From assembly GCA_000002435.2 (NCBI GenBank), contig CM018793.1: a stretch of 64,000 nucleotides of DNA. One strand, 5' to 3'. The DNA is from Giardia intestinalis. Lineage: Eukaryota. Positions 35,505 through 48,145 of the stretch are shown in pieces (position 1 is the first letter of the stretch; every line of letters begins with the position of its first letter). A model generated the notes under the pieces. The model had not been told where the DNA came from. It searched no databases and worked only from the letters and a program-made list of their open reading frames with translations. Both the position numbers and the translations under genes were made by a program.

Positions 35505-37961
35505 ATGTTACAACTCGTGACCACTCTAATTCTTCTACTCCTTAGTCTAGCCGATCCTTCCTCGGACGCGCTTTGTCTGACAACTCTTGTTGCAAATACA
35601 AATGGAACAGATACGTGGTTTAATAGGACGGATTGGAGCACCAGCATAGATGCTCAGACCATGTGTATGCTTCCGGGGGTCGTCTGTGACGCGTCTGGCC
35701 AGGTTAGACAGCTCCACCTCCCTGGAAACGGCATCATAGCCCCCGATTTCAAGCACTCTCTTCCACCGTGCATTGGAAGCATGGACGGACTAGAGTACTT
35801 GAATCTCACCGGAAATGCGCTCAAGGGCCAAATAGCTGACCTTCCTGCGCGTATAAAAGTAGTCGACTTGACCAGGAACAGTTTCACTAAGCTTCCCTCC
35901 AACATATGCAATTTGGCTAACACCCTCGAGATATTCCTTGTGGCAAATAACCCACTGACAGACGGAGTAATCCCTGAGTGTACCATGAGCATCCCATCTA
36001 TAGACTTTGGCCGCACCCAGCTTTCCTTTCCGGCTGGGAAGAGCTCCCTGACAATCGGTGCTGACACAAAGTGCTTTGGTCTTGCTGATATTTCTGCTCC
36101 TGGTGTTTCTCTTGTGCTTCCAACCGAGACTGCAAATCGGCTCACTTATTTGGACCTGTCGAACATGGGCCTGTCAGGCACACTTACCACTGACAATTTT
36201 AAGGCTCTACTCATGGGGACTGACGTTATGCTAGGATACAATCAACTTGAAGGAGAACTGGATCTAAAGGCAGTGTCAGAGGGCATACAGACTCAGGGAT
36301 ATTCGAAGATAAGGCTGTTGGATTTATCCAACAACAACTTCAAGGGCCTCATGGAAGGGGTGCAAGAGCTAGAGTCTCTTCTTCCTAAGTTCGGCCCCGA
36401 TATCTCTGTAATTGATATCTCCAACAATGCACTCGTTGGTATTGCACCCAAACTTAATGAGATTGCCAACTTTCGTGAGAGATTTCCGCATTTGATAGGC
36501 ATCAGAGCTAGCGGAAATAACTTTTTCTGTACCAAGGGTGTCTATGGAGTACAGGAGTCCAAGATGTCAGCTCCTGATGGTAGTAGCGATTGTACTCTGC
36601 TATTAACTACGGGAGCCACCGTTAAGGAAGTGATAATTCCGGCAGACTATTCTGACCCCGAGAATCCTATCGAGGAACAGCGCTACTATGAAGTCAGCCT
36701 CGTGCTGCGGTCAGGGTCTGCCACCAAGCCCTTGGACATCTCCAAGTTTGGAAGCACAGACTTCAGCTTTGGAATATACGATAGCGACCCCCAGACATCT
36801 GTTATGATCATCGAGGGAGTTGGGTTGCAGGCTGACGTCTCAGACCCGGTGGTCTTTACAACCTCAGGCCGAACTACAACGGACGAAGCCTATGCAGCAA
36901 TCAAGAAGTACGTTAACCTCATTGACGATCAAGGGAGCATCCCACCGAGCGTGATTACAGCGTTTTGGAAGACGCACGCGTTAGAGACCCACTTCGCGCT
37001 GAGTGGACCTGAGGTTCCTGCTGAGCATGAAGTGTACAGGACAAAGAATAGCTCGGATACCTTTTTGGGGACGATCTACTTGACAGGCAGCGGGGAAAGC
37101 GAGGAGCTCCACGAAGTTATAACACAGATTCTAACGCCGATGTTTGCCAAGTTCCCGAAGGTGCGCCGTTACTTTTCTGTCTCCTTCACGAGCACAGTCG
37201 AGCCGTATCAGTACAATACGTTAAAAGGTTATTCTCTCGTTTCCCCTGCGTCGGCTCTTGCCGACACATATATCGGGTGCTTCTCGTACTATACAGACTA
37301 TAATCTCACAAGGCTTAATGACCTTATGGAGTGCATGCATCCAAACGGCAGATTTGACCAATTGCCGTACATCCTCGAAACGTGTACGGAACAGCTCCTA
37401 GTCGGAAGATACGGCCTTTCTACAGCAAAGCTCAATGCCTTTAATCGCTGCTATCATGAGACCCGCGGAGTTTACCAGTCTCGCCTTGACATTTATAACA
37501 ATGATGTCAAGACGCGTGGCGTGGGCAGCACCACGGTCATGCGTCTAGGTGAGGACGTCTTCTGTGTTCCTCGTAACTCTTATTGTCAGTTCACCTACGA
37601 CACTACCAATTTGACTGAAACCGCATACCAGTTTGTTTGGTCCGCCTGTGACCAGCTGCGCAGTCAGCTGGGAGAGGCATCAACGCTTGGTTGTCCCAAG
37701 TATGGCGAATATGAGCCAGAGACCCCGCCGGAGCCGAACCCAGACCCTGAGCCTAGCCCCGATCCAGATCCCAGTCCAGAGCCGGACCCAAGTACCAACG
37801 AGTCGTCCATCAACGTTGGCATGACCACTGGAATTATCGCCGGTGGTGTCCTAGTGGCTGTTTTGATCGTGGTTATTCCTATAATAGTCTCAAAGCGTAG
37901 GAGGCCCAGAGCCTCTACGGAGTCCGAGGCTGCGCCATTGACTGGACACGACTATGCCTAG
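35505..37961 (+). CDS. Type I membrane protein with leucine-rich repeats, a Pro/Glu/Asp-rich stalk and a C-terminal TM anchor
   Basis: Signal peptide MLQLVTTLILLLLSLA. LRRs such as LDLSNNNFKG and IDISNNALVG. Low-complexity stalk PEPNPDPEPSPDPDPSPEPDPS. TM segment GIIAGGVLVAVLIVVIPIIV followed by KRRRP. AT-rich promoter-like stretch upstream. Confidence 0.7.
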   Translation: MLQLVTTLILLLLSLADPSSDALCLTTLVANTNGTDTWFNRTDWSTSIDAQTMCMLPGVVCDASGQVRQLHLPGNGIIAPDFKHSLPPCIGSMDGLEYLNLTGNALKGQIADLPARIKVVDLTRNSFTKLPSNICNLANTLEIFLVANNPLTDGVIPECTMSIPSIDFGRTQLSFPAGKSSLTIGADTKCFGLADISAPGVSLVLPTETANRLTYLDLSNMGLSGTLTTDNFKALLMGTDVMLGYNQLEGELDLKAVSEGIQTQGYSKIRLLDLSNNNFKGLMEGVQELESLLPKFGPDISVIDISNNALVGIAPKLNEIANFRERFPHLIGIRASGNNFFCTKGVYGVQESKMSAPDGSSDCTLLLTTGATVKEVIIPADYSDPENPIEEQRYYEVSLVLRSGSATKPLDISKFGSTDFSFGIYDSDPQTSVMIIEGVGLQADVSDPVVFTTSGRTTTDEAYAAIKKYVNLIDDQGSIPPSVITAFWKTHALETHFALSGPEVPAEHEVYRTKNSSDTFLGTIYLTGSGESEELHEVITQILTPMFAKFPKVRRYFSVSFTSTVEPYQYNTLKGYSLVSPASALADTYIGCFSYYTDYNLTRLNDLMECMHPNGRFDQLPYILETCTEQLLVGRYGLSTAKLNAFNRCYHETRGVYQSRLDIYNNDVKTRGVGSTTVMRLGEDVFCVPRNSYCQFTYDTTNLTETAYQFVWSACDQLRSQLGEASTLGCPKYGEYEPETPPEPNPDPEPSPDPDPSPEPDPSTNESSINVGMTTGIIAGGVLVAVLIVVIPIIVSKRRRPRASTESEAAPLTGHDYA

Positions 37962-38026
37962 AAAATTACTTCAAAGGGTAAATAATCAAAGGATTCGATA
38001 TTTCGTACTGATTGTCCGGCAAAAAA

Positions 38027-38587
38027 ATGGGGAAGATAGATCTTACCGACCAGGCCATTGAGCTCAAGATAGCAGGTAAACAGATGGAATCTCAGGCGCG
38101 TCGCCTCGAGACTGATGTTAAGAATCTCCGCTTGGAGCTGCAAAGGGTGATTGCATCTAACAATCGCGAACTCGCCAACACAAAGGCAAACCTCCTGGTT
38201 GCGAAGCAGAACCAGATAAACCAGCTTTATAAGCTCGCCGGTCAGATGGAGATCATTGCCACCCAGCTGGAGATAGGCGGCTTGATGATGGAGAATGCGA
38301 AGGAAATCAAAGGATTGAATAAAAATGTGAAGAAGGCTCTGAACACAATGGACACAAAAGCGCTTGCGAAGATCATGGACGAGTTTGCGAAGAGCGACAA
38401 GAACCTCTCCATGAACACCGCCTTCATGGGCCAGATGATGGGTGAGCAGACGAGCGCCACCATGGACTCCCAGGTCGCCGCCAAGCTGATCGCAGAGGTC
38501 GCACTGGAGCAAAAGCTCACGCTCCCCTCCTCGTTTGCAGACCTTGTGGAGCCCGCCGAGGCCCAGGTGGCCCAGAGCGTCGAGTAA
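38027..38587 (+). CDS. ESCRT-III family (Snf7 domain) protein, CHMP1/Did2/Vps46-like
   Basis: 186 aa from the first ATG; the track start is TTG at 38012. Collinear with human CHMP1B: LKIAGKQMESQARRLE versus LKFAAKELSRSAKKCD, and ALAKIMDEFAKSDKNLSMNTAFMGQMMGE versus KISALMDKFEHQFETLDVQTQQMEDTMS. Coiled-coil throughout. Confidence 0.7.
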   Translation: MGKIDLTDQAIELKIAGKQMESQARRLETDVKNLRLELQRVIASNNRELANTKANLLVAKQNQINQLYKLAGQMEIIATQLEIGGLMMENAKEIKGLNKNVKKALNTMDTKALAKIMDEFAKSDKNLSMNTAFMGQMMGEQTSATMDSQVAAKLIAEVALEQKLTLPSSFADLVEPAEAQVAQSVE

Positions 38588-42000: not shown

Positions 42001-42456
42001 ATGGGAACTGGTGCGAAGCAGAAAGACGCATCAAAAGCGACGCCATCGGGGCACAAGGAGCGGCCCAACAAGTCTGACAAGCGTAAGAACTCTTTCAAGG
42101 CGTCCCATGCAAAGCGGCTGGAAGATGCAATAGCCTGGATGTATCACTGGCACACAGACAGAAGCACCTGGACCTTCGACAAGAAGCAGCAGACGTTGCT
42201 TGTGCAGGCATGGATGGACTCAGAGCGCATGCCCAAGGACACCTTTGCCGTCTTCTGCCTTTTTGCCGCGGGAAGTGAGGCGGAAGCCTTCAAGCGCCGC
42301 TTGTTGCAGGAGGCAGAAGTCATGCTCACTCGCTACAGAAACAACAAGGAAAACGAAAATCTCCGGAGGCAAGCAAAGAGGGCAGTCAAATTGAAGGCCG
42401 CCCTCAGCAGCGGGAAGAATGATCCTGAGGCCCAGCTCCTGGCGGACGAGGTATAG
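42001..42456 (+). CDS. Small basic WKF-domain (C7orf50 / DUF2373-like) protein
   Basis: 151 aa with a Lys-rich N-terminus. The motif WTFDKKQQTLLVQAWMD fits the WKF-domain consensus (W-K/T-F-x-K-x-x-Q-x-x-L...W). AT-rich start context; AGTAAAT overlaps the stop codon (42455-42461). Confidence 0.5.
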   Translation: MGTGAKQKDASKATPSGHKERPNKSDKRKNSFKASHAKRLEDAIAWMYHWHTDRSTWTFDKKQQTLLVQAWMDSERMPKDTFAVFCLFAAGSEAEAFKRRLLQEAEVMLTRYRNNKENENLRRQAKRAVKLKAALSSGKNDPEAQLLADEV

Positions 42457-42468
42457 TAAATGAGACGC

Positions 42469-43041
42469 TTATACCATCTTATGTCGTGCTACGTATCGTA
42501 CTGGCAGTCTACGCTGCCGGTGCTTGATCTTTGAGCCTCCGGCAAAGATTAATATGAGGCTTGAGAAGAGGGCTAGCACAAGTACAACAAGTGATATCAC
42601 TAAAGTCTTACGAATGGTGGCGAGGTTGCTTTTTAGTTGCCGCCTTTCAAAACAATACAGGCTATCTCCGTCGCGTGCGCAATGGACACATCCAGGTATT
42701 CCAGCAACCACTCCGTGACTTGTTGAGCAAGGAATGCACAAGCCTGATGCCTCCGTAAACGCCGGGTAGTAGCCCTGAGCACATACGGTGCAACCATTTG
42801 GCTCTGCTGATCCGGTGCATGTCTCGCACGATGAATGGCATAGGGTACAGAGCCCCTTATCGAGGAAGTAGCCCTCGGGGCATATAATGGGCGGTTCAGA
42901 AGCGCGATTCCAAACACAGGCGTTGAGCCTCTGGTTAACAATGTATCCGCGCGGACATCTGACGCACTGGCCGTCCTCTTCCTCAATGCACTGAACCTCA
43001 TAGCTCAAAGCTACGCTCCAAATCAGTGCCAGAACAAGCAT
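42469..43041 (-). CDS. Small high-cysteine membrane protein (HCMP-like, CXXC repeats, one TM)
   Basis: Signal peptide MLVLALIWSVALS. CXXC/CXC motifs CVRC, CTLCHSSCETC, CTVCAQG, CIPC, CVHC. TM segment LVISLVVLVLALFSSLILIF with a basic tail. No CRGKA terminus, so not a canonical VSP. Confidence 0.7.
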   Translation of the reverse strand: MLVLALIWSVALSYEVQCIEEEDGQCVRCPRGYIVNQRLNACVWNRASEPPIICPEGYFLDKGLCTLCHSSCETCTGSAEPNGCTVCAQGYYPAFTEASGLCIPCSTSHGVVAGIPGCVHCARDGDSLYCFERRQLKSNLATIRKTLVISLVVLVLALFSSLILIFAGGSKIKHRQRRLPVRYVARHKMV

Positions 43042-43141: not shown

Positions 43142-46100
43142 ATGAGGTTATTATTGCTTCTTGGCTTAATTATTCAGGGCACCACTGGCGTTATATGTAC
43201 AGATGAGATTCTAATATATGACCATGAGGACTTTGCCTTGATACAAAGCTGTCCCAATTCTAAGTTCCTACTGATGAATGATATTGCCGTTGTGGGCCCC
43301 ATGCCCATAATTCCCATCTTCAAGGGCACCTTTGACGGCCAGGGGTTCTCTGTTGGTGGTATTGTCGTTTCAGAGTTATATGATAAAGCAGCTCTTTTTG
43401 ACACATTTTCAGGGTCAATGCGCAACGTTACCCTCTCAACCATGGTAAGTGTCGTTAATTCAGAAGCTAAATTCATCTCTGGGTTTGCAATAGAGCTTGC
43501 AGATGCGTACTTTTATGACGTGAACATCACTACTACTATTACCGTTAAGGATTGCATAGCAGGAACTGTTATTGGTGGACTTCTCTCTTCCACATCCGAA
43601 ACAGCACCGGGGCTTGTGGTCGCCTCATCTATTACAGTCATGAACTGTGAATGTGTGGTTGGAGGCGCCATTGGCCAATTAGATAGCAACTATACCACCC
43701 TGCTTCCCTCTTACTGGTCTTCTCCCATCACTGTATACTCCACCATACAGTTGTACAATTCTTCTAGTACCGTTGGTGGCTATATTGGGATTTCTGAAAA
43801 AAACATTCACTCCCTTGTCCTCAGGGCCTCAATTGAGGTCTTAGGGAATAGCAGTCACAACTGTGTGATTGGTGGGGTTGTTGGAGACATTAGAGGGGCG
43901 GTTATTCACTCTAATATAACGTTGCTTAAGATGTACGTCAGTGGGTGTGCAAATAATGAAAAGTCTGTTATCGGTGGAATAGGCCCCTCTCTGGTGTGCT
44001 CCTTCCCCAATTGCACCATAGTCGAGGATATTAAGCTGTACATAAACCTCTTCTACACAGATGGTCTCTCAAATGCTTGTATTGGGGGTTGCTTTGGACT
44101 AGTAGACCAAGTGTCTCTTTCTTACCTCCATCTGCGCTTCTCACACGTAGAGGTAGAGTCGCGTTTTGGAGGCATTGCATCCACTATCAACTGCACGAAC
44201 ATTGACCAGGCTGCAATCTCAATTGATTACATTACATGGGTTGACTCGACAACGGATCCATTTTTAATAGGAGGATTTGGGGCTCTCGTAGACAACTACA
44301 CAACCATAGAAAATTCACTGGTTACAGTGGGTGAGGTGAACCTCAACTATACATCCATTAATCCTAGTTACTTTGGTGGGTTCGTGGCAAATGCTTCAAA
44401 GCTCCTCATTTCAAATTCTTACGCAATGATTTTTCTTGCCGTCCTTAATACCTCCCAAGTTGTCGGAGCCAACTCTTCGTTTGGCATTATGCTTGGGCGG
44501 ATCACTTGTAACACTGACGAACAAATACGAATCATTTCATCCTTTGTTGCAGCTGACACAATTCTTGCAAATGGGCATGGTTCGGAGCTCTTTAATATCG
44601 GAGGATTTGCAGGACACCTTCTAAATCCTACCACCAACGGGCAGTGCTTTGTGTTGGCGAATTCGTGGTCATCTATTAAGTTTCGCATCAATGAGATCAG
44701 GAGAGGCTCTGGGTCGCCTTTTGCTGTAGGGGCACTGATAGGTAACCCGGGAGACTCTTCGTTTCTCATCACAGATGTCTATGTCAAGGCTTACTTTGAC
44801 GTGGTTAACATTCAGCAATATAAATATAATAATAACAACAATGATGGAAAGTACAACGCAATAGGAATATTAACAGGGTTCTATAGCGAAAGTGCCGCCA
44901 CACCTACCAAGAAGCAGATGCAGATCTACAGAGTTATATGCCAAGTAGATGTTCTGTTTGAAGAAAACTTTGCAAGAAACATATACTATGTGCCCAGTGA
45001 GCCTGTTTGTCTTCTCTGCAGTGATATCTTCATTACTAATACCTCTAGCCACTTCTATGGATACGGATCAAAGGGAACATACTTGGCCGACCCACTAGAG
45101 ATGCAGCAGCGCGACTTCTACACCAACTTCCTGTTTGGTGAGGACCAGATTTGGCAGTACAACCTCGACTTATACCCCTACCACACCTCCCTTCCGTTCC
45201 TCTTCCACCACCTTTCTGATTTCAGTTCCGATAGTACGAGTATTAGGTTCATCACGCCAATCTGTAATCATCATCTCTGCTGGAACTATACTCATGTGTG
45301 GAATGGGCAGCGCTCAATGACTGTTCTGAATCTTCAATACCTGAGCAACCAATGCTATATTGAGAACTGCATCCTTTGTTCTCCCAGTAGCTCATACGTG
45401 TGTATGAAGTGTGCCAGCGGGTACATTTCAAATGCGAGCGGTGACACCTGCCTAGAGTGTCACAGTAGCTGCATGAAGTGCAGCATCCCTGACCTGTCAA
45501 ATCAATGCATAAGCTGTGCTGTCTATGGAGAGGTCTTCTTTAATGAACGGTGCATTCCCAATCCCTATACCTGCAATCTGCCATATTGTCTTCTCTGCAG
45601 CTTTACCAGTGCACGGAGCTGCGCTGTGTGTGTTCCTGGTAAAGGGGTCCAGGAGGAGAACGGCTACTGCACAATCTGTAAAAGTGATTGCTATACATGC
45701 TCGTTATCTCAAAAGTGCTCTAGCTGTAGTAACTACACAAGGGAGGCTTTACAGGGATTCTGTGAGTATAGTGACACAGGGTGCTACAACACGTGCAAGT
45801 TCTGCAAAAGCGACAATCTTGAAATGTGCTTAAAGTGCAGCAATAACAGCTACACGTTAGATGAATATGGAAACTGCCAGAAACAGCCAATTCCGTTTTG
45901 TATGGTCTATAATTGTGCAATATGCAGCTCAGCAGATAACTTTATTTGTAATGTATGCAAAAACGGATACTACTTGACCAAGAATAGACTGTGCAAAGCC
46001 TGCGAGGAACACTGCGCTGTGTGCTCTTCATACAGCGTCTGCCTCGAGTGCATGAATCCAAAGACCAGGCCCATAGCGGGGATATGTAACTACTCAACTA

Positions 46101-46357
46101 ACTGTAGCATTAGTGGCTGTTCTGTCTGCACACTAGGCGTTGAATCCAGTTGCTTGACGTGCGATACTGGTTACGTTCTAACCGATAACACCTGCCAGCA
46201 GCTGGTAAATAACCATCTAAGACAGGTCACAGTCGCACGAATGACAGCAGCAATCTTGGCGATGATAGCTATTACCATCAACATCGCTTATCCTTTGATA
46301 CGCTATCGCAAGTACTTGAGGGACGAGACTGCTCCTTTGCAACCAGAACCTTCTTAA
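43142..46357 (+). CDS. Chimeric surface protein: signal peptide, about 700 aa GG-motif beta-solenoid-like repeat domain, HCMP-type CXXC-rich region, then TM anchor
   Basis: Signal peptide MRLLLLLGLIIQG. About 12 repeats spaced roughly 35 aa apart, each centred on hydrophobic-GG-x-hydrophobic-G (SVGGIVV, VIGGLLS, VVGGAIG, TVGGYIG, VIGGVVG, VIGGIGP, CIGGCFG, RFGGIAS, LIGGFGA, YFGGFVA, NIGGFAG). From about aa 700 the region is dense in CXXC (CILCSPSSSYVCMKCASGY, CLECHSSCMKC...). TM segment AAILAMIAITINIAYPLI followed by RYRKY. Confidence 0.7.
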   Translation: MRLLLLLGLIIQGTTGVICTDEILIYDHEDFALIQSCPNSKFLLMNDIAVVGPMPIIPIFKGTFDGQGFSVGGIVVSELYDKAALFDTFSGSMRNVTLSTMVSVVNSEAKFISGFAIELADAYFYDVNITTTITVKDCIAGTVIGGLLSSTSETAPGLVVASSITVMNCECVVGGAIGQLDSNYTTLLPSYWSSPITVYSTIQLYNSSSTVGGYIGISEKNIHSLVLRASIEVLGNSSHNCVIGGVVGDIRGAVIHSNITLLKMYVSGCANNEKSVIGGIGPSLVCSFPNCTIVEDIKLYINLFYTDGLSNACIGGCFGLVDQVSLSYLHLRFSHVEVESRFGGIASTINCTNIDQAAISIDYITWVDSTTDPFLIGGFGALVDNYTTIENSLVTVGEVNLNYTSINPSYFGGFVANASKLLISNSYAMIFLAVLNTSQVVGANSSFGIMLGRITCNTDEQIRIISSFVAADTILANGHGSELFNIGGFAGHLLNPTTNGQCFVLANSWSSIKFRINEIRRGSGSPFAVGALIGNPGDSSFLITDVYVKAYFDVVNIQQYKYNNNNNDGKYNAIGILTGFYSESAATPTKKQMQIYRVICQVDVLFEENFARNIYYVPSEPVCLLCSDIFITNTSSHFYGYGSKGTYLADPLEMQQRDFYTNFLFGEDQIWQYNLDLYPYHTSLPFLFHHLSDFSSDSTSIRFITPICNHHLCWNYTHVWNGQRSMTVLNLQYLSNQCYIENCILCSPSSSYVCMKCASGYISNASGDTCLECHSSCMKCSIPDLSNQCISCAVYGEVFFNERCIPNPYTCNLPYCLLCSFTSARSCAVCVPGKGVQEENGYCTICKSDCYTCSLSQKCSSCSNYTREALQGFCEYSDTGCYNTCKFCKSDNLEMCLKCSNNSYTLDEYGNCQKQPIPFCMVYNCAICSSADNFICNVCKNGYYLTKNRLCKACEEHCAVCSSYSVCLECMNPKTRPIAGICNYSTNCSISGCSVCTLGVESSCLTCDTGYVLTDNTCQQLVNNHLRQVTVARMTAAILAMIAITINIAYPLIRYRKYLRDETAPLQPEPS

Positions 46358-47984
46358 AGCAGGTAGATAGGAAAGCCAGAAGCATCAATCCAGAGAAGAG
46401 GACAAACATCATCCACATGTAGAGCCAGAGTTCTGTTTTCTCCTGTGCTACGAGTACACACGAAGAGTTTCCATGACTATCTATGTTTAGCTGATAACCG
46501 TCTAGACATGTCTGGCACTGCACGCTACTCTCCTCTTTAAAGAAGTAGACACAGTTTGGGATCGTCAGCTCACAAGTATTGTGGGTATTATTCAGGTAGT
46601 AGGTGATTGCGCAGCTTGTGCAAACTATTTCCTGTGTGCTAAGAGCTCCGCTTGCCGGGACACACGTTCGACAATTTGGTACAACCCTCGAGCAGGCAAC
46701 GCACTCTCCATTCTTCAGGTAATATCCAACTATGCACTCTGTGCACTCTATGTCACTATCCCTTGAGATAGTGCACTTTGTGCAGCCAAGGAGATATGCT
46801 CTGCAAAAGACACATGTGCGATTGACCAGGACATACCCATCCATGCAAGCACTACAAGAGTCGATGTGATACTGTTTGCATCTCTTGGGATTACTTTGCA
46901 GCTTTTCACATTTATTGTTCTTCGCGAGATAGTATCCATTTTTACAGGCAAAGCACGTAATGGTCCCGTCATTTAAAGAGCACTCTGCACACTTTTCTAC
47001 CACTGTCGCACATAGCACGCATGTTGCACCAGTACCAGGGTTAATTAAATAGAAGCCGGAAATGCACTCTGTGCAATATGGTTTAAGGCCATATACACAG
47101 CTCTTGCAGCCTCCACTTATCGCCAAACAGCTCCTGCACTTGCCATCGACAAACGTCATCCCCGACTTGCAGACTGTGCAGGTGGGATTCGGGCTTGACA
47201 CACACATTGTACAATAAGGATCTATCTCTGTGCAATTGCTGCAGCTATTCTTGGCAATCATTTGCAGTCCTTCGTTGCATGCAAGGCAAGTTACTTTATC
47301 CTTTGTCTCGAAGGCGCATACCGTACAATTTGGTATGACGTTATGACAAAATTCACATACGTCTGTTGTGGATACTGCAGCCGTTTTCTCAATAAGCCCA
47401 TACCCAAACCTACATTTGATGCAGCGCGGTTCGGAGCCTTCCATTTTACACTCTTCGCAATCAGGAAATATGTCCTCACAGAATACACAGCTGCCATCGT
47501 GGATCACTACATAATTGTCAATACACTTGTTGCAGTTGTAGACCAGCTGCGCTTTTGAGAAGGAGCATTCCAGGCAATTTGGGATCTGAATACGACAGTT
47601 GATGCACTTTGATCCATCGAGCCTGCCTACTGCATAACTATACTCGCAGGTATTACACACTATAGTCTGGTCTTTCAGCTGTATGCAAGAGTCGCAATTA
47701 TTGATATATTCTTCGCACAGGGAACATCCACCCGCAAAGTCAAGAAACGACCTATATGCGCATTCGGTGCATTCTACTGTAAACGAGTCTCTGTAGTAAA
47801 AGCAAGGCAAGAGCCCCGGGCCAGGGGTCTTTGAGCAAACGTCTGGGTCTGTTGGGAAGCTTAAACACGTACACTTAGTACAGTTCACAACAAAGTCCTC
47901 GCACTTAGCAGGAAGGCAGTCGTAGACATCCCTTGTGTCCCCGCCGGTTGCCAGGAGGAGTTCTCGCTGTGGAGGCAGGCCCAT
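46278..47984 (-). CDS. High-cysteine membrane protein (HCMP / VSP-like, CXXC-rich) lacking an N-terminal signal peptide
   Basis: More than 25 CXXC motifs. C-terminal TM MWMMFVLFSGLMLLAFLSTCF plus a short tail with no CRGKA. The track start is GTG at 47987, and the ATG at 47982-47984 gives MGLPPQRELLLATGGD... with no hydrophobic leader. Its 3' end overlaps the convergent gene 43142..46357 by 80 bp. Confidence 0.6.
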   Translation of the reverse strand: MGLPPQRELLLATGGDTRDVYDCLPAKCEDFVVNCTKCTCLSFPTDPDVCSKTPGPGLLPCFYYRDSFTVECTECAYRSFLDFAGGCSLCEEYINNCDSCIQLKDQTIVCNTCEYSYAVGRLDGSKCINCRIQIPNCLECSFSKAQLVYNCNKCIDNYVVIHDGSCVFCEDIFPDCEECKMEGSEPRCIKCRFGYGLIEKTAAVSTTDVCEFCHNVIPNCTVCAFETKDKVTCLACNEGLQMIAKNSCSNCTEIDPYCTMCVSSPNPTCTVCKSGMTFVDGKCRSCLAISGGCKSCVYGLKPYCTECISGFYLINPGTGATCVLCATVVEKCAECSLNDGTITCFACKNGYYLAKNNKCEKLQSNPKRCKQYHIDSCSACMDGYVLVNRTCVFCRAYLLGCTKCTISRDSDIECTECIVGYYLKNGECVACSRVVPNCRTCVPASGALSTQEIVCTSCAITYYLNNTHNTCELTIPNCVYFFKEESSVQCQTCLDGYQLNIDSHGNSSCVLVAQEKTELWLYMWMMFVLFSGLMLLAFLSTCFKKVLVAKEQSRPSSTCDSVSKDKRC

Positions 47985-48145
47985 CACAGAAAATGAAAAG
48001 GACTTCCATGAGGCACTGTCCTCTATTTACTCGCCAGAGTAGAAAATCCTGAATAAGTATTGATACAGTTCTACGTCTTTTGAACACTGAGTTGTGTTTC
48101 ATCTTAACTAAAGTACTGGCCGTCTGTGGAGCAAGTTGGTGGAGA

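Follow-up and report, generated by a model that had tools for sequence, protein, structure and literature searches.

A conserved 80-bp coding overlap at the 3′ ends of two convergent cysteine-rich membrane protein genes of Giardia intestinalis

Two convergent genes for cysteine-rich membrane proteins on chromosome 5 of Giardia intestinalis WB (assemblage A1), GL50803_11692 on the plus strand (43142..46357) and GL50803_15475 on the minus strand (46278..47984), share the final 80 bp of their coding sequences (46278..46357), just as the initial annotation of this DNA had proposed. This overlap is real and conserved, and it is an ordinary case of a known phenomenon. Positions refer throughout to the window, i.e. 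the whole stretch of 64,000 nucleotides that was analysed. From a functional point of view, the arrangement quite probably reflects an extreme packing of the two genes together with the constraint that dual coding places on the tails they share, the complementarity of the two mRNAs being a tolerated by-product. According to this reading, a compact genome would pack its genes until each tail is read from the reverse complement of the other's; the plus frame would dominate, and the minus tail would be kept open and at a fixed length and would change faster in sequence. The complementarity of the mRNAs would then be no more than what convergent genes of Giardia usually show.

Geometry of the overlap

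The plus-strand gene terminates with TAA at 46355-46357 and the minus-strand gene with TGA at 46280-46278. The dual-coding segment holds, for each gene, 25 complete sense codons and the stop codon along with 2 nt of one more codon, so that the previous description of the shared DNA as the last 27 codons of each gene was roughly right without being exact. The two reading frames are arranged such that the first codon positions face each other, whereas the second and third positions of the plus frame lie opposite the third and second positions of the minus frame, respectively.

The proposal that both cytoplasmic tails are encoded here holds, and the tails quoted for the two proteins, ...RYRKYLRDETAPLQPEPS and ...KEQSRPSSTCDSVSKDKRC, each followed by its stop, are right. 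As delimited by hydropathy and alignment, the plus tail (RYRKYLRDETAPLQPEPS, 18 aa) occupies 46301..46354 (+) and the minus tail (KKVLVAKEQSRPSSTCDSVSKDKRC, 25 aa) occupies 46281..46355 (−); the overlapping DNA therefore covers both complete tails and the end of the plus transmembrane (TM) segment. The latter, predicted at 46241..46300 (+) as the best Kyte-Doolittle window, extends with its final 23 nt into the overlap, where the final codons of the minus gene and its stop codon lie opposite to it. On the opposite strand, the TM segment predicted from Kyte-Doolittle hydropathy (46430..46356, −) begins directly at the plus stop codon, which abuts the first TM codon, and thus the 3′ UTR of the plus gene is antisense to the minus TM segment. 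The most conserved core of the DNA, considering both strands, spans 46284..46327, with 28 of its 44 columns invariant among seven sequences, and codes for AYPL(I/V)RYRKYL on the plus strand and TCDS..KDK on the minus strand.

Gene identities and family membership

The plus-strand ORF encodes 1071 aa from ATG to TAA and matches the WB proteins exactly, its sequence being identical to XP_001708828.1 / KAE8305437.1. It is currently named 'High cysteine membrane protein' (HCMP), and before that it was a 'VSP, putative'. The identifier GL50803_11692 was assigned from the order of genes in Table S1 of PMC8700996 (15474, 11690, 11692, 15475, 15476, which is the genomic order) and from its listing there as 'GLCHR05 forward'. 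The minus-strand ORF, with an ATG start, encodes 568 aa and is likewise an exact match to a WB protein; an in-frame GTG lies upstream of the ATG, at 47987. Its identity as ORF 15475 agrees with the 31 CxxC motifs and one CxC motif given in the table of Davids 2006 and with its position adjoining GL50803_15476 (Protein 21.1). Public WB annotations already hold both coding sequences with the same ends, and both genes were retained in the curated 2020 re-annotation of WB, in which spurious overlapping ORFs were purged (PMC7000408). Neither gene identifier was found in a search of the literature, and no entry of 568 or 1071 aa in the tables of differentially expressed HCMP genes during host interaction (PMC7461913) fits either gene.

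HCMPs have been defined by a length of at least 400 aa, a Cys content of at least 10%, at least 20 CxxC/CxC motifs, a C-terminal TM segment and a tail other than CRGKA (Davids 2006). The minus protein shows every one of these features, with 568 aa, 13.2% Cys, 31 CxxC and one CxC, a single C-terminal TM segment and a non-CRGKA tail, and it appears as ORF 15475 in Group 2 of that classification. The plus protein comprises a putative N-terminal signal peptide, to which a hydropathy scan points with a clearly hydrophobic N-terminus (MRLLLLLGLII...), a low-Cys N-terminal part of ~650 aa, a Cys-rich C-terminal part and one C-terminal TM segment; it is an HCMP by name and has 20 CxxC motifs, but with 6.3% Cys it falls below the 10% of the definition. 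The low-Cys N-terminal part (window 43142..45100, +) has no Pfam match, and the protein goes by the name of HCMP or VSP depending on the annotation.

Both genes lack all the VSP hallmarks that were tested, namely the CRGKA tail, the AGURAA-based signal after the stop and the Pfam VSP match. The CRGKA tail, used as a criterion for VSPs (bioRxiv 10.1101/2022.03.07.483299), is absent from both proteins, which end in ...LQPEPS and ...KDKRC, and neither protein matches PF03302 (VSP) or any other Pfam entry at E<=0.01. The small neighbouring gene at 42469..43041 does match PF03302.

Conservation across Giardia lineages

Orthologous pairs were compared from assemblages A2 (DH), E (P15) and B (three loci) and from two deeper lineages, X (ERR3333379, SRR17450158/160) and Y (ERR3333378), which diverge more than assemblage B; the orthologous loci are labelled L001, L002-4, L005, L006/7, L008 and L009-11. 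Across the five deep lineages, the overlap measures 80, 80, 83, 80 and 80 bp, and in all five the antisense frame is open and the position of the stop is kept. The proteins themselves show identities to WB of 68-86% for the plus gene and 58-80% for the minus gene. Within the overlap, the plus protein carries a nearly invariant motif, (A/V)YPL(I/V)RYRKY, which comprises the last TM residues and the start of the tail and is followed in every lineage by an acidic E two residues beyond RYRKY. The minus tail has kept its length (25 aa; 26 in assemblage B), and its sequence is 53% identical between lineages, which places it at the 10th percentile of its gene. Thus, the plus frame represents the stronger constraint.

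Viewed in one genome alone, the open antisense frame is nothing out of the ordinary: with the partner protein fixed and synonymous codons redrawn from the genes' own usage, the chance of a frame being open this far is P=0.22 in WB in either direction, so that this feature alone is not significant in one genome. The products of the per-lineage open-frame probabilities amount to 2.7e-3 for the minus frame and 3.4e-4 for the plus frame, values that overstate the significance as a consequence of shared ancestry. The overlap goes beyond chance because it is conserved across lineages and because synonymous variation is reduced within it. It appears to be old and to have been maintained in both frames. 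Its strict length conservation could mean that the arrangement itself is functional, as 'mere compaction' does not predict a strict length. With regard to its origin, protein searches returned no outgroup, the only hits beyond the G. duodenalis lineages being distant Cys-repeat proteins; there was no sign of de novo overprinting of one tail, and no outgroup with the pair was found.

A short palindrome of 8 nt near the centre of the overlap, AAGTACTT, was dismissed, being present only in A and E and absent from B, X and Y.

Two further observations concern the minus gene. In DH (A2, GCA_000498715.1), its orthologue is intact at L009 7137..8843 (−), with a single stop and a protein 97.5% identical to that of WB; the same gene is absent from the DH annotation, likely because of the overlapping neighbour gene, and its being dropped from this assembly's annotation is a caution for annotators. 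In addition, a hydrophobic N-terminal signal peptide is absent from GL50803_15475 in five lineages, the maximum Kyte-Doolittle value in a hydropathy scan of the first 30 aa being 0.1 (window 47890..47987, −, and the orthologues in L001, L002, L005, L006 and L008), and an in-frame stop sits just upstream of the start codon. The apparent lack of a signal peptide is odd for a supposed type-I surface protein as rich in Cys (13%) as this one, and with a C-terminal anchor that lies just 25 aa from the end it could point to a different topology or to a mis-set start.

Signature of dual coding

Selection on both frames should leave its mark at synonymous sites, and this was followed as the fraction of identical codons, counted among conserved residues only, in sliding windows of 26 codons. 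In the last window of the minus gene, this fraction reaches 0.82 against a mean of 0.57 (99.8th percentile of 545 windows). In the last window of the plus gene, it is 0.645, while the gene as a whole averages 0.52 (98.9th percentile of 1,057 windows). This excess is modest, a value of 0.63 being found in one further non-overlapping window; the lineages are also not independent of one another. The adjacent 26-codon windows are ordinary (0.53 and 0.58).

The same picture emerges when the sites are sorted by codon position in the five lineages. Sites that are third positions of the plus frame and second positions of the minus frame vary at 16 of 25 within the overlap, compared with 44 of 50 just upstream (Fisher p=0.029), and sites that are third positions of the minus frame and second positions of the plus frame vary at 8 of 25, compared with 39 of 50 in the flank that codes only for the minus protein (Fisher p=2.7e-4). 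Irrespective of codon position, 44 of the 80 columns are invariant among seven sequences, versus 36-45% of the columns in the 150-bp flanks. Judging from these substitution patterns, both frames appear to be under selection, with the plus frame, and its RYRKY motif in particular, dominating and the minus tail evolving faster; both tails are probably translated. It follows that synonymous sites in dual-coding segments of this kind are not neutral.

Two other causes of the conservation were considered and rejected. A hidden non-coding RNA is not indicated by an Rfam scan of 45500..47200, which gave no match at E<=1, and a hidden RNA element beside the overlap does not agree with the ordinary synonymous conservation of the adjacent 26-codon windows.

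Similar signatures are known from antisense dual coding in viruses, bacteria and organelles, where two proteins are likewise encoded on opposite strands, synonymous variation is suppressed in both frames and one frame is dominant, the other changing more quickly. The present case differs in that it concerns a nuclear eukaryotic locus and only short cytoplasmic tails.

Transcript 3′ ends and complementarity

The full-length mRNAs of both genes must be complementary over at least 80 nt, and if both proteins are made, the complementarity would include the 80 nt and both 3′ UTRs. A further suggestion of the initial annotation, that these UTRs are fully antisense to each other, is not borne out by the geometry, since they run apart, rightwards from 46358 and leftwards from 46277: each UTR is the antisense of partner codons for the TM segment and the ectodomain, in the minus gene for the plus UTR and in the plus gene for the minus UTR.

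How far the UTRs extend was approached through the Giardia poly(A) signal AGURAA (PMC9014877), by searching every lineage for AGTRAA and its near variants in the 900-1500 nt that follow either stop. In WB, AGURAA does not occur within 900 nt downstream of either stop, and AGTAAA at +187 of the plus gene is found solely in E and X. For VSP genes, an extended signal has been described, ACUUAGRUAGURAAYRY, which is no more than about 28 nt away from the stop (bioRxiv 10.1101/2022.03.07.483299); judged by its AGURAA core, this signal is likewise absent within 900 nt of either stop in WB. The absence of AGURAA is not unusual for such genes: of 94 genes for Cys-rich membrane proteins, just 67 have the signal within 2 kb, and the 3′ UTRs of HCMP genes can be as short as 7 nt or as long as about 2000 nt (bioRxiv 10.1101/2022.03.07.483299). 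With no AGURAA nearby, the 3′ ends of the pair are not predictable.

That the scan as such is credible can be seen at the next gene, GL50803_15476, where AGTAAA at window 48026..48031 (−), 115 nt after the stop (48146), fits the two 3′ UTR lengths, 128 and 140 nt, given in the supplementary table of PMC9014877. This leaves only about 20-35 nt between the end of the GL50803_15476 transcript and the GL50803_15475 start codon.

Convergent pairs in the Giardia genome

Overlapping transcripts are the rule rather than the exception at convergent genes of WB, having been found in 892 (81%) of the 1,097 tail-to-tail pairs whose 3′ UTRs had been mapped (Franzen et al. 2013, PMC3610916), and the median 3′ UTR has been given as 80 nt (PMC3610916) or 59 nt (PMC9014877). 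The present pair shares with these the organism, the geometry and the mutual antisense relation of the 3′ ends, and differs from them in that the coding sequences themselves overlap, by 80 bp, and not merely UTR with UTR or UTR with coding sequence. The gaps at the eight convergent junctions of the window measure 91, 204, 107, 70, 133, 12, -80 and 98 bp, so that GL50803_11692/GL50803_15475 is the sole overlap between coding sequences among them and the HCMP pair stands at the extreme of a continuum. Antisense RNA is also abundant across the Giardia genome (PMC1885649). The 94 genes for Cys-rich membrane proteins (CRMPs) are all transcribed and often yield antisense reads, sense reads exceeding antisense reads in only 36-41% of these genes (bioRxiv 10.1101/2022.03.07.483299).

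Against this background, the idea of a built-in substrate for dsRNA formation can be upheld in one respect, as full-length mRNAs would be complementary over 80 nt, but such complementarity is not special to this pair when 81% of tail-to-tail pairs overlap. Since complementarity is usual in convergent pairs of Giardia, this organism most likely tolerates the overlap and does not employ it as a dedicated silencing device.

Expression and the question of regulation

Both genes are expressed at steady levels in the 35 bulk RNA-seq samples of PMC8700996, which cover trophozoites, encysting cells, cysts and excyzoites. In this data set, for which the strandedness of the libraries is not stated, the log2 CPM of GL50803_11692 has a mean of 7.94 (range 7.38-8.92) and that of GL50803_15475 a mean of 7.19 (range 6.72-8.75). 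The anticorrelated expression that had been proposed as a check on mutual silencing is not seen in these bulk populations: the Pearson correlation between the two genes is +0.83 in the raw values and -0.02 after batch-centring (replicate means removed) and with cysts excluded.

One regulatory alternative, in line with the idea of the initial annotation, is a cis-natural-antisense (nat-siRNA) module, in which the 3′ ends of the two mRNAs would pair, Dicer would process the duplex into RNAs of 25-26 nt and Argonaute would lower one or both HCMP mRNAs. The ingredients for such a module are at hand, as Dicer, Argonaute and RdRP are all present in Giardia, whose Dicer yields products of 25-26 nt in vitro (reviewed in PMC2817412). 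Two full-length mRNAs would necessarily be complementary over 80 nt or more, transcription could run on far into the partner gene given that no AGURAA lies within 900 nt of either stop in WB, Cys-rich membrane protein genes often show antisense reads, and the length of the overlap is strictly conserved. Nevertheless, overlapping transcripts at 81% of convergent pairs do not by themselves mark a regulated locus, and the bulk expression of both genes is steady, moderate and not anticorrelated. Dual coding moreover fully explains the excess conservation of the overlap, the adjacent windows being without extra constraint at the RNA level. The endo-siRNAs of Giardia are also said to come from retrotransposons and from three regions dedicated to them rather than from convergent genes. 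Those described so far fall into three subtypes, SRI-SRIII, at least in the account that PMC11080815 gives of Liao 2014. Taken together, these points make such a module very unlikely.

Two known systems invite comparison. Plant nat-siRNA loci at convergent cis-NAT pairs (PMC2262095) resemble the Giardia pair in having complementary 3′ ends in an organism with Dicer, Argonaute and RdRP; however, they are defined by small RNAs together with reciprocal regulation, whereas the Giardia pair is known from its genes and its bulk expression is not anticorrelated. The RNAi-based control proposed for Giardia VSPs (Prucca et al. 2008), as it is presented in PMC2817412, likewise involves genes for Cys-rich type-I surface proteins, antisense RNA and Dicer, Argonaute and RdRP. 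In that account, silencing acts in trans on homologous VSP transcripts via dsRNA made by RdRP, whereas the present case is an overlap in cis, and both genes are without the CRGKA tail, the AGURAA-based signal after the stop and Pfam VSP matches. The connection to surface-antigen RNAi that had been drawn for this locus thus comes down to a family resemblance.

Another possibility is transcriptional interference, whereby colliding polymerases would leave only one of the genes productive per nucleus or allele, in an either/or switch that would be invisible in bulk. It would be in keeping with convergent genes that have no terminator or poly(A) signal between them and with the view that HCMP expression is variable and regulated through chromatin (PMC7461913), and exclusivity at the level of single cells is compatible with the bulk data. 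However, the CPM values are at a middle level for both genes in every sample, and most convergent pairs of Giardia have crossing transcripts without known exclusivity, which renders this explanation highly improbable. The same grade applies to the broader proposition that the conserved overlap and the lack of canonical poly(A) signals together form a cis-antisense coupling device, in which each mRNA would read through into the partner gene and either dsRNA or polymerase collision would make the two proteins mutually exclusive per cell or nucleus.

Finally, it is exceedingly improbable that the overlap is an artefact of annotation, with a run-on ORF tail (likeliest the minus one) that is neither functional nor selected or with one gene left untranslated: what could be cited in its favour, i.e. 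the single-genome P of about 0.22, the 53% identity of the minus tail at the 10th percentile of its gene, the gap in the DH (A2) annotation and the lack of an obvious signal peptide in the minus protein, is outweighed by an open frame and a stop position kept in five lineages, by the lower variability of the plus synonymous sites in the overlap (p=0.029), by the conservation of the whole minus ORF at 58-80% identity with its 31 CxxC motifs and its integrity in DH, by read counts for the minus gene in all RNA-seq samples and by the fact that translation runs to the first stop, so that the tail is made wherever the mRNA is present.

Clearly, nothing positive was found here for the nat-siRNA, polymerase-collision or run-on-tail readings. 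Close packing with dual-coding constraint, if nothing but compaction is involved, would make the pair a clear-cut case of antisense dual coding in a eukaryote, and a well-conserved one. If coupling were true, it would amount to a hard-wired switching of two surface-protein genes, distinct from the trans-acting VSP mechanism, and a fixed pair in cis would be easier to test than the VSP family with its roughly 136 members. The control of Giardia surface proteins by antisense RNA is still debated, and nothing found here favours coupling yet.

Other junctions and ORFs in the window

Several neighbouring features were noted in passing. At 37958..38587, long ORFs are present on both strands, and only the one on the plus strand (38012..38587) matches Pfam (Snf7/ESCRT-III); the minus-strand ORF (37958..38512) looks spurious. 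A second overlap between coding sequences, which had come up as a candidate at 37958..37961, was rejected for this reason, the real gene being the plus-strand Snf7 ORF. At window 42001..42098, an overlap is annotated in assemblage B and none in P15, a difference that probably stems from the assignment of start codons rather than from a real divergent overlap.

The gene GL50803_11690 (42469..43041, −) encodes a VSP-like protein of 190 aa with a Pfam VSP match and a C-terminal TM segment, and its log2 CPM rises from about -1 in trophozoites to about 4-5 in late encystation (PMC8700996), with its neighbours remaining flat. It converges with GL50803_15474 (+), which encodes a WKF-domain protein, at the junction 42454..42471, where only 12 bp separate the two stops, at 42456 and 42469. 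The stop codon TAG of GL50803_15474 is overlapped by AGTAAA and thus forms a dual-use stop/poly(A) signal; cleavage of this transcript would fall in the 12-bp spacer, right at the stop codon of the partner gene.
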